A stretch of DNA of 31,537 bases. Origin: a virus. Made by a program: the position numbers. Within the stretch, counting starts at the first letter, position 1. The number at the start of each line of letters is the position of its first letter. The stretch lies in the IMG/VR virus record IMGVR_UViG_3300033688_000038, positions 93,341 to 124,877 of that record; one strand, given 5' to 3'. Shown here piece after piece: positions 3,001 through 6,000 of this stretch.

Positions 3001-6000
3001 TTATAATACTCTATAATTTCTAATTCATTTCCATTATTCATTACATGCTTAATTCCACTTTTCATATCATCTTTAATCTTTCTCATACTTATCCCTTAAT
3101 ATTAAAAGATACACTGAAAGGATAAAAGATAAGAAACAAGAAATATATCTTATTATGATTATATCTTACATTACAGTATATTATACTTTTCTTAGTTTGT
3201 AAATTATCTTTAATTATAAAAATAATAAATATAGATTATGATTATTAAATCTTACTCTTTCTTCTTTATTACAGTGAATAATAAGAATATAAAAATAAGA
3301 AATAATAATCATAAATTTTAAATACAATTATATATAAACCCTAAAGGGCCGCTTCATAAACACTGTAAACCAGAGAAGTTAATCTCTCAAACCAGTGTGT
3401 ATATATCTGTAAGAAGTTAGCTCATAACTTACAGAATGCATTAAATATATTAAATTGTCTTGCTAACAAATTATACTAGTATATACAATAATTATGCAAT
3501 ATACTCACAATTTATTTTAACATATATACAACTATTTTTCAAAAAATTTAGATTGAGTAATAACGCCCAGTGCTGGGCTAATTGAGGGGTATTGATGGGA
3601 GGTGATCTTTATACACTGAAAGCTGGGAGGTCATAATAAGAGGTATATACTGAAAATAAAAGAAGAGTGAGTTGATGGGAGGTGATACCTACTGAAGATT
3701 GATGGGACCTCATAAATGACGTATTGAGACACTTTGTATTGAGGGGGTATAAAACGGGGATATCCTCATTAATTAACTTTGTTCAGTCTTTGGGTGTCAC
3801 GCGCCCCCGCGCCCGCAGCCCCTAAGGGGGAAGTGCCCTCTGGTAGTACCTAAGTAATTGATTTATATACATATTTAGCTTTTATCTATATAGATAGCCC
3901 TTATATATGGTACGCCATACGATTAACTAACGATAAGATGTATAATAGATATATGTATTTAATATAAGATGTATTTAACATGTATGTATGATTGCCCGCA
4001 CCGCTACCTATATACCAGTGAGGTATCTATTGAGGTATAATCTATTGAGTAACAATGCTATTGAGGTATATATTGAGGTGAATATTCATTAGATATGCTG
4101 ATTAGGTATACGGGTAGTGGGGTGGTTGCTATCTAAGCGATAACTGGGATGTCAGGTACTAGATATATGAGGCTATCCTATATAAGCATATGCACCGTTA
4201 AATAAATATCCCCTATGGGTATGTGAGTGCGCGTTATGTCATTAGTAAGTCATTGTTATTGTGTGAGGTATATGCTTATATGGCATTATATATTGAGTTA
4301 ATACCCCTTATGTATATATGCCTATATAGTATTACTTATAGTGTATATCTTATACAACATATATACCGCAACTGTATAATTCCCGTAGGGAATATATCCC
4401 CGCAGGGGATGGGGTATCGTATATAGGAATGTTATGTATAAAAGGTATATCTTTTATCTTTTCAGTGTATCTCTTATGTAAGGAATATTCCTTGATGGTA
4501 TTGTTCTGGGGTAAACATTCCTTGAATGTATAAAACACTATGCAATATCTATTCAAGATAAACAATCCTATACCTATTAAGTATCAAGATAATAAGGTTA
4601 ATAGTGTGATATTGATCACATAAAATAAGGAATAAACACTTGACAAAACAGTGTTTTAAATGCAACGCACCCGTTTCATTATATTTAAGAGCTAAAAGAG
4701 TAATGAATAAGTATGCAAATAAGATGATTAATAGTGAATAAATATCTAATTACCCCATGTTATGTGAATAAGTAGTGAATAAATGAATAAATAGTGATTA
4801 AGATTAAGTGAATAATAGGTGAATAAACCACTGAATAGTGAATAAGATATGATTATATTAAGTAATAGTGCTTATTTAGTGCATAATGAAAATAAGAGTA
4901 TACGAATAATTAAAATCTGGTAATATCTACCCCATCGAAAAGGAACACGGCAACGGGTTCTGGTTCGTAGGGTGAGAGGTAGTTACCCGATAAGGTTAAG
5001 ATAAAGAGTTAATCTTTTATCTTGACGGGGTAGGTAGGTTAGTTTACTATCTCCCCACTGCTTCACCGTTCTTTAATAATTTGCCCTTTAAAGCCTCAAT
5101 GGCTTACCTCTTATAGAGTCTTTATAAAGAGTTTAAAATAAGCCATTGACAAGGTGATAAAAGGGCGTATGATTAGGGAACACAAAGAGGAAATAAAGCC
5201 TCTTAAAATAAAGAAATAAAACATTGACAAGATATATTAAATCTTGCTACAATGTTGATACACCGTTCTTTAATAATTTGCCCTTTTAAGCCTTAACGGT
5301 TTTAATCCTTTCCCTTAATTTATTAGGCGGAATAAAAAGGATTAAAAACAACGTTGACAAGGTGATAAAAGGGCGTATATTAAGGGACACGAAAGGAATA
5401 CATTTTCCTTTCAATAGGTTGGTTATGTTCTTACCTTAAAATCTCAGAACTTTCTTAAGTTCGTCATAGGTTTAAAGTTAGGCAACGCTACAACTAACCG
5501 CACTCGTTCTTTAAAAAACTGGTTAAATTAGAATAAACAATTGATTAGGTTATTAATAACTTAATGACTGTTTACCACTAAAAACAACATCCTATCACTT
5601 TAAAAATGTATGGGCAATGTATGGCATCAAGGCTGACGGGGCGAATCCCACTTGATGTGCGTAATTGTGAAAGCATTTGATACAAGTCAGTAAGGGGTTC
5701 AAGTGGGTTTATATTCATAATTGGAATACTAACAGGGCATTGTAGCCCTAACCAATCAAACATGGTTTATTGTTTGACTAATAGGCAAGTTGCGCCTATA
5801 CATCATCAAACTGGTTTAGTGTTTGACCTCTGCGATTTACAGTGTAAATTGTTTTGGCAAGCAAAGAGCTTGAAATTCTCGCACTGATTTACAGTGTAAA
5901 TTCTTAAAAGGAAAATAAAATGACTGTATTAACTTTAGATTTCGCAAAACAAACACTTAAAAATGATCTAAGCTCTAGTCTTATCGTATCTGAAATGGTT

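Follow-up and report, generated by a model that had tools for sequence, protein, structure and literature searches.

The window analysed here is a stretch of 31,537 nucleotides (nt) that forms the final 31.5 kb of a 124,877-bp phage record (IMG/VR virus record IMGVR_UViG_3300033688_000038, positions 93,341 to 124,877), which is circularly permuted and has a G+C content of 36%. At the head of its rightward array of small genes we identified two long hairpins, termed rods here, each of which starts with a boxA motif and runs into the next predicted promoter. We propose that the rods are RNA elements of an early leader that would depend on Nus factors in the manner of the Escherichia coli rrn operons and phage T7. 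They may act as miniature leader-trailer helices, stowing a used boxA together with the RNA copy of a promoter, and possibly serving as substrates for RNase III. We hold this reading, which draws on the parallels with the rrn leader and the T7 early region, with evenly balanced confidence. A helix of the same design, built from different sequence, was found in four phage lineages.

Two boxA-initiated hairpins in the early leader

The late genes of the phage run leftward as far as 3086 and are followed by 2.8 kb of non-coding, repeat-rich DNA, after which the small-gene array runs rightward from 5920. The early leader in front of this array is untranslated and 862 nt long, and the operon behind it exceeds 25 kb. 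Four strong host-type promoters are predicted in tandem in the leader, each with a boxA downstream. The features, in window coordinates, are as follows.

5001..5020, + strand: imperfect short palindrome ATAAAGA...TCTTTTAT, immediately 5' of the P1 -35 element, read directly from the sequence
5022..5050, + strand: P1, predicted sigma70-type promoter TTGACG-17-TACTAT, 9/12 matches, predicted start ~5057
5068..5078, + strand: boxA 1, GTTCTTTAATA, at the base of the hairpin 1 5' arm, ~10 nt past the predicted P1 start
5068..5181, + strand: hairpin 1, a rod of 114 nt with 42 pairs (5 G-U), from folding
5146..5173, + strand: P2, predicted promoter TTGACA-16-TATGAT, 11/12, within the hairpin 1 3' arm, predicted start ~5179-5180, at the hairpin end
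5185..5204, + strand: small RNA hairpin AAGAGG...CCUCUU between the P2 and P3 starts, from folding
5224..5253, + strand: P3, predicted promoter TTGACA-18-TACAAT, 11/12, with TG before the -10 element, predicted start ~5260
5229-5247, + strand: palindrome CAAGAT-N7-ATCTTG in the P3 spacer, read directly from the sequence
5265..5275, + strand: boxA 2, GTTCTTTAATA, at the base of the hairpin 2 5' arm, ~5 nt past the predicted P3 start
5265..5388, + strand: hairpin 2, a rod of 124 nt with 50 pairs (6 G-U), from folding
5354..5381, + strand: P4, predicted promoter TTGACA-16-TATATT, 11/12, within the hairpin 2 3' arm, predicted start ~5387-5389, at the hairpin end
5391..5412, + strand: small hairpin GAAAGGA...UCCUUUC directly 3' of the P4 start, from sequence reading and folding
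5506..5516, + strand: boxA 3, GTTCTTTAAAA, outside any rod, ~118 nt past the predicted P4 start and the last boxA before the early gene at 5920

An initial annotation of this DNA, made from the sequence alone, had described the units as duplicated hairpins whose 5' arms begin with boxA and whose 3' arms contain complete sigma70 promoters. Both parts of this description held. The motif GTTCTTTAATA fits GYTCTTTAANA, the published consensus of gammaproteobacterial boxA (PMC5725501), and a search of both strands of the whole 124,877-bp genome returned three matches only, at 5068, 5265 and 5506, all on the sense strand. P2 and P4 lie wholly inside the 3' arms, with 16-nt spacers and 11 of 12 matches to the sigma70 consensus each, and each rod stops no more than 2 nt from the predicted start of its promoter. 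The palindromes that had been noted at P1 and in the P3 spacer can be read in the sequence.

The closest relative that we found is L084, a 3.5-kb contig from the Logan assemblies; its first early protein has 51% identity to that of the window phage. Its leader follows the same plan, with a homologue of P1 at ~921-949, a similar palindrome (AAAAGAT...ATCTTTT) at the equivalent place 5' of P1, and four boxAs. Two of these are the T variant seen in the window and two are classical; one of the classical copies, CGCTCTTTAACAATTTATC, matches the E. coli rrn leader exactly up to and including AATTTATCA. Judged by sequence, the window motif is a boxA variant rather than a look-alike, because the L084 leader mixes the T variant with classical boxAs. 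Consensus and leader position mark the window copies as putative NusB/NusE sites.

Minimum free energy (MFE) folds contained every pairing that the initial annotation had named. GTTCTTTAAT pairs with ATTAGGGAAC in unit 1 and with ATTAAGGGAC in unit 2, GCCCTTT pairs with AAAGGGC in both, and the two different middles each pair with themselves. With RNA parameters the + strand of unit 1 folds at -41.9 kcal/mol and that of unit 2 at -44.5 kcal/mol, with z-scores of -5.8 and -6.6, and none of 200 dinucleotide shuffles folded as well. The base helices of the rods have 18-21 pairs, so that in each unit a helix of more than 17 bp joins a boxA-adjacent strand to a strand made later. The largest internal loop is 4x4 nt. 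All that either helix encloses is an apical hairpin, whose loop is not the same in the two units.

The units are diverged direct repeats whose 5' parts share 87% identity and whose 3' parts share 79%. On both arms the outer ~25 nt are the same in the two units; the middles are unrelated, each being self-complementary. When the 5' arm of one unit was combined with the 3' arm of the other, the chimeric hairpins lost 11-14 kcal/mol, and since the exchange is this costly the arms must have changed together. Two paralogous units could in principle be a functionless relic of inverted and direct duplications. We give this explanation only the slightest chance: the middles have diverged fully yet both still pair, the chimeras are worse by the amount just given, and the design has been kept in distant phages despite unrelated sequence.

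The boxA-to-promoter helix in other phages

As a check, the initial annotation had called for folding and covariation across related phages. The pairing between boxA and promoter does recur, with a sequence that differs in each lineage. In phiEco32 (four copies), Aeromonas phage 4_4572 and Proteus phage Privateer, the early leader, which is divergent from terL, carries a cluster of boxAs. Across 11 Kuravirus/Suseptimavirus genomes (phiEco32, SU10 and nine others) boxA alternates with promoters of the form TTGACA-N16-17-(C/T)ATAAT, and in all of them a long structured leader lies behind this alternation.

Folding from each boxA revealed a common arrangement, which phiEco32 has at two sites, Privateer at one and 4_4572 at one or two. 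Where a promoter lies downstream, boxA and the next 12-15 nt are complementary to the spacer, the -10 element and the discriminator of that promoter. The boxA itself pairs with the bases directly after the -10 element, as GCUC/GAGC or as GCUCUUUAAU/AAUUAAGGGC, and the 10-12 nt 3' of boxA pair with the 3' half of the spacer. In both phiEco32 hairpins GCUC of boxA pairs with GAGC directly behind CATAAT, and in Aeromonas phage 4_4572 the same pairing stands behind TAAAGT. The Privateer helix joins boxA plus AUAUGGAUAACC to GGUUAUCUGUAU plus AAUUAAGGGC, which belong to a predicted promoter with 12/12 matches. The sequences that pair with the spacer are GCCCUUU/AAAGGGC in the window, AUCAGGCU/AGCCUGAU at phiEco32 site A, AUAUGAAUCAU/AUGAUUCAUA at phiEco32 site B and CUUACCUUU/AAAGGUAAAG in 4_4572. 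The end of the helix falls no more than ~3 nt from the predicted start of the embedded promoter, both in the window and in phiEco32. Within 2.4-3.4 kb, the best duplex partner of boxA plus 15 nt is the next promoter at both phiEco32 sites and in Privateer. Because the boxA strand is complementary to the next promoter, a transcript started upstream would fold the stretch from boxA to the next start into one closed helix.

Both phiEco32 sites are kept across the 11 Kuravirus/Suseptimavirus genomes: of the cells in their alignment 99.6% are paired, two pairs show compensatory changes, and the pairing falls to 29-52% when the partner is shifted by 1-3 columns. The phiEco32-like coliphages share with the window the promoter/boxA alternation followed by a long structured leader; the window phage differs from them as a distant 125-kb relative with the GTTCTTTAA variant and far more stable rods. 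Short blocks (GGGCGAATCCCAC, TGTGAAAGCA) are also conserved 3' of the last boxA, at 5640-5700 in the window, 1870-2110 in L084 and 430-680 in a further sequence, L085. By sequence comparison, the part of the leader 3' of the last window boxA is probably homologous to, and shorter than, the large structured leader RNA of the phiEco32-like coliphages.

A third boxA-adjacent helix is common to L084 and L085, with two compensatory changes and no promoter inside. The general unit is thus a boxA with an adjacent long helix, whose 3' strand commonly but not invariably overlaps a promoter, because the boxA-adjacent helices of L084 and L085 lack a promoter in the arm. The helix that follows the second boxA of L084 (1171-1373) has 22 bp at its base and encloses an open reading frame (ORF) of 36 codons (1214-1324) for a hydrophobic peptide, which looks like an insertion inside a boxA-adjacent helix.

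These promoter-free helices are also what would be expected if the pairing reflected leader folding in general. An AU-rich untranslated leader might be selected for pairing throughout, as a shield against Rho and RNase E, in which case the promoters would simply be constrained sequence to which the unconstrained parts became complementary, and the link to boxA would carry no regulatory meaning. The whole 862-nt leader is indeed predicted to be highly structured (MFE -247.7); RNA between promoters is likewise packaged by the palindrome in the P3 spacer and by two small hairpins (5185-5204 and 5391-5412). We nevertheless consider this explanation doubtful. The base of the stem is formed by boxA and the discriminator in four lineages, the helix stops within ~3 nt of the next start, and the boxA strand has no better partner than the next promoter within kilobases, a regularity more specific than general folding requires.

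In our search of the literature we found no description of each boxA pairing with the next promoter, and no printed description of boxA arrays in phiEco32-like coliphages. The boxA-to-next-promoter helix therefore appears to be undescribed. The early transcripts of phage 7-11 span almost half of the genome, and how the phage achieves antitermination 'remains to be defined' (PMC8948821). In the corresponding region of this phage (88864-89916, ~1 kb upstream of gene 151) we found neither a GYTCTTTA motif nor a promoter with at least 10/12 matches, so its early promoters and antitermination signal must differ or lie across the record ends.

The structure is favoured in the sense RNA

A helix of this kind could act in RNA or in DNA, and the initial annotation had offered three readings: promoters in single-stranded or cruciform DNA, RNA decoys for the host polymerase, or a switch that hides boxA. 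Comparison of the two strands bears on all of them. With RNA parameters the + strand folds at the -41.9 and -44.5 kcal/mol given above versus -32.2 and -31.2 kcal/mol for the - strand, making the sense rods 10-13 kcal/mol more stable; the z-scores on the - strand are -3.8 and -2.8. The sense fold gains this advantage from its 5-6 G-U pairs per rod (5 in unit 1 and 6 in unit 2), wobbles that had been correctly placed on the + strand. With DNA parameters the strands are about equal (-19.9/-23.8 and -18.5/-21.5 kcal/mol, z ~-3.6 to -4.3). The sense-strand bias is the pattern expected of a structure selected in the rightward transcript, unlike that of a cruciform. The base helices of the window and Privateer are 8-10 kcal/mol more stable on the sense strand; those of phiEco32 are neutral, and in one case the bias is reversed.

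The equal DNA folds, hairpins on both strands, leave some room for an element of the DNA, either cruciforms that toggle P2 and P4 with supercoiling or inverted-repeat operators for a phage or host regulator, and the Kuravirus hairpins show no strand bias. Such an element is nonetheless improbable. The 5-6 G-T/A-C mismatches per rod and the non-palindromic centre disfavour extrusion, a sense-strand G-U bias as in the window and Privateer would be meaningless for duplex DNA, and a common operator is excluded because the arm sequences differ completely between lineages.

A promoter of the Frpo/ssi type, in which a folded single strand provides the -35 and -10 duplex for the host RNA polymerase, would be used at entry or in replication priming beside the DnaA-box-like array at 4704-4845. 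The hairpin does set a full promoter opposite its near-complement, so that the -35 and -10 elements are duplex; an internal loop falls on the upstream half of the -10. A repeat-rich non-coding region lies directly to the left. The geometry is unfavourable, and we regard this use as highly improbable. The + strand hairpin, which folds better, could template nothing but leftward RNA, which would lead away from every early gene, and the - strand hairpin, the possible template for early mRNA, has A-C mismatches opposite the G-U pairs of the + strand. The constant boxA at the start of the arm, an RNA signal, would be left without explanation. The relatives are double-stranded DNA podoviruses that are not known to have a single-stranded entry stage, which also counts against it.

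The promoter sequence in the 3' arm could further suggest a decoy resembling 6S RNA, a released rod that binds the sigma70 holoenzyme. Interference with sigma70 seems to be within the repertoire of the phage, since two proteins of the window (26558-27352 and 28100-28777) match 'decoy of host sigma70' or Srd-like families. The rods themselves fit this idea poorly: they have no large central bubble, their internal loops reaching 4x4 nt at most, and an Rfam search at E<=1 returned no 6S match, only a chance small RNA match outside the units. The holoenzyme is not known to read promoter sequence in A-form RNA, and a decoy of this type is barely credible.

With the first two of the initial readings set aside on these grounds, a structure that hides boxA came closest. 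The rod starts at boxA and is favoured in the sense RNA. In the partition function of the finished full-length leader the probability of being unpaired is 0.00 for boxA 1 and for boxA 2, and 0.38 for boxA 3.

Comparison with known leaders

In the rrn leader, boxA anchors the strand that follows it (boxC) near the RNA exit channel while the transcript loops out, and this strand then pairs with the emerging trailer; the resulting leader-trailer helix carries an RNase III site and is followed by a second boxA (PMC10250234). The window leader resembles that of E. coli rrn, where tandem P1/P2 precede a boxB-boxA-boxC series, in its tandem strong sigma70 promoters and in a boxA of the same consensus. 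It also has a long helix that joins a 5' strand directly behind boxA to a later-made 3' strand, and boxA is repeated after the helix, as it is in the 16S-23S spacer of rrn. There are also clear differences. The window helix encloses 20-60 nt and no rRNA or other functional RNA. The boxA itself lies in the stem, whose 3' strand is formed by the RNA copy of another promoter. Between boxA and the helix strand that follows it (GCCCUUU) there are 4 nt in the window, compared with 18-19 nt in rrn.

Phage T7 provides a second parallel. Its early operon also starts with three or four tandem strong host promoters ~80-130 nt apart, with an rrn-type boxA (an exact match at T7 813) near a long hairpin (R0.3, cleaved by RNase III). 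The T7 boxA, behind A1-A3, acts in antitermination (PMC3709561). T7 differs in having a single boxA downstream of all the promoters (A1, A2 and A3) and no boxA-to-promoter helix. Within T7 350-1000, GUCAACCG is present in the A1 and A2 leaders and is complementary to CGGUUGAC over the A3 -35 element; this short pairing may be a faint echo of promoter stowing.

The lambda nut site likewise has a boxA followed by a hairpin in an early leader. There the hairpin is boxB, 15 nt long, and N binds its conserved loop, whereas the window rods measure 114-124 nt and keep their base conserved while the apical parts differ between the units.

Promoters inside hairpins are familiar from T4, where in genes e, soc, 49 and I-TevI the 3' arm masks the ribosome-binding site, and from the promoter-early-stem-loop (PeSL) cassettes. 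As in the window, the hairpin contains the promoter and can form only in transcripts that started further upstream. The T4 3' arm follows the internal start, whereas the window hairpin is entirely upstream of its internal start. The window rods also mask boxA and no ribosome site, the next + strand ORF of at least 30 codons starting beyond 5760.

A possible relay of boxA elements

The comparison suggests how such a leader might work. Each boxA would emerge no more than 10-20 nt after initiation and would recruit NusB/NusE and the other Nus factors, and the Nus-loaded RNA polymerase would then be fast and Rho-resistant along the ~860-nt untranslated leader and the >25-kb operon. The boxA-adjacent strand may be kept near the RNA exit channel, as has been proposed for boxC of rrn. 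During transcription boxA 1 and boxA 2 would be free until ~110 nt later. Once the polymerase has read past the next promoter, this strand would zip with the 3' strand, retiring the used boxA and locking up the AU-rich RNA copy of the promoter. The locked copy may be shielded in this way from RNase E, from Rho and from re-annealing to the promoter DNA as R-loops. Past the next start site, read-through and new transcripts would be alike, and both would depend on the next boxA. A helix of 30-45 bp would also be a plausible RNase III substrate, like the rrn leader-trailer helices and T7 R0.3.

Taken to its full extent, this suggests a relay in which each boxA loads a Nus complex at initiation and is then actively retired, by zipping to the RNA copy of the next promoter as the polymerase passes that start, so that all transcripts end with one exposed boxA and the same leader. 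We think it unlikely that the relay operates in this complete form. A single exposed boxA per transcript agrees with the values for the window given above; in phiEco32, where the probability of being unpaired is 0.25-0.44 for all four boxAs, it does not clearly fit. No relay of this kind has been described for any operon; if true, it would be a built-in RNA insulator, or hand-over device, that links promoter architecture to antitermination.

Several observations weigh against the interpretation of the rods as stowing helices of a Nus-dependent leader. NusB/NusE bind single-stranded boxA, and a very stable helix could equally mean that boxA 1 and boxA 2 are switched off. Chance pairing at the base of the stem may be eased by the intrinsic resemblance of the boxA complement to a -10 element. 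Every promoter and start site of the window phage is a prediction. Covariation within the phage is limited to the two paralogous units, because the sole other copy of the region (L086, from the same phage) is identical over hairpin 2; among the Kuravirus hairpins covariation is modest and strand asymmetry inconsistent. The stretch behind the first boxA of L084 has little structure (z -1.8), and the helix after the second boxA (z -4.9) stops ~20 nt before the next promoter.

Phages of the phiEco32-like group produce very long early transcripts from a small number of host-type promoters. The repeated leader boxA offers a direct, testable answer to the question of how they avoid early termination. 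The boxA-promoter helix may represent a design rule by which strong promoters are stacked before one antiterminated operon with no interference from the upstream RNA, a rule of interest to transcription research and synthetic biology. As the same helix occurs in phiEco32 and SU10, the idea can be tested in E. coli with the nusB, nusE, rnc and rho tools.

Genome context and neighbouring features

The large terminase (TerL), portal and capsid genes of the phage are of the SU10/phiEco32 type. TerL is 58-65% identical to that of the nearest cultured relatives, whose hosts are Aeromonas, Proteus, Vibrio and Escherichia, so that a gammaproteobacterial host is probable. A blastn search of the region against 50,697 phage records gave no match, the exact 24-nt arm motif was not found in IMG/VR, and probing IMG/VR with the first two early proteins returned no relatives. 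A TerL search of IMG/VR yielded only relatives of at most 45% identity, in ~39-kb contigs. Among 5.8 billion proteins the first early gene had two relatives only, both from Logan assemblies. One further contig (L083) encodes a TerL that is 73% identical and stops within the repeat region, short of the promoters.

The region to the left of the promoters contains 1.8 kb without genes (3087-4900) and is rich in repeats. It includes a 29-nt inverted repeat (3103-3131 / 4448-4476, 93% complementary), TTGATGGGAGGTGAT repeats and, at 4700-4880, an array of GTGAATAA-type repeats. Repeat arrays of different sequence occupy the equivalent place in L083 and L084.

The two window proteins with matches to sigma70-decoy families (26558-27352 and 28100-28777) are paralogous early proteins, and their PHROG matches comprise 'decoy of host sigma70', Srd anti-sigma and HNH endonuclease families. 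Five tRNA genes (Ser, Gly, Arg, Ser and Trp) are clustered on the - strand at the end of the late arm (566-1057), and a single tRNA-Arg(CCU) gene lies on the + strand within the early array (15987-16061).

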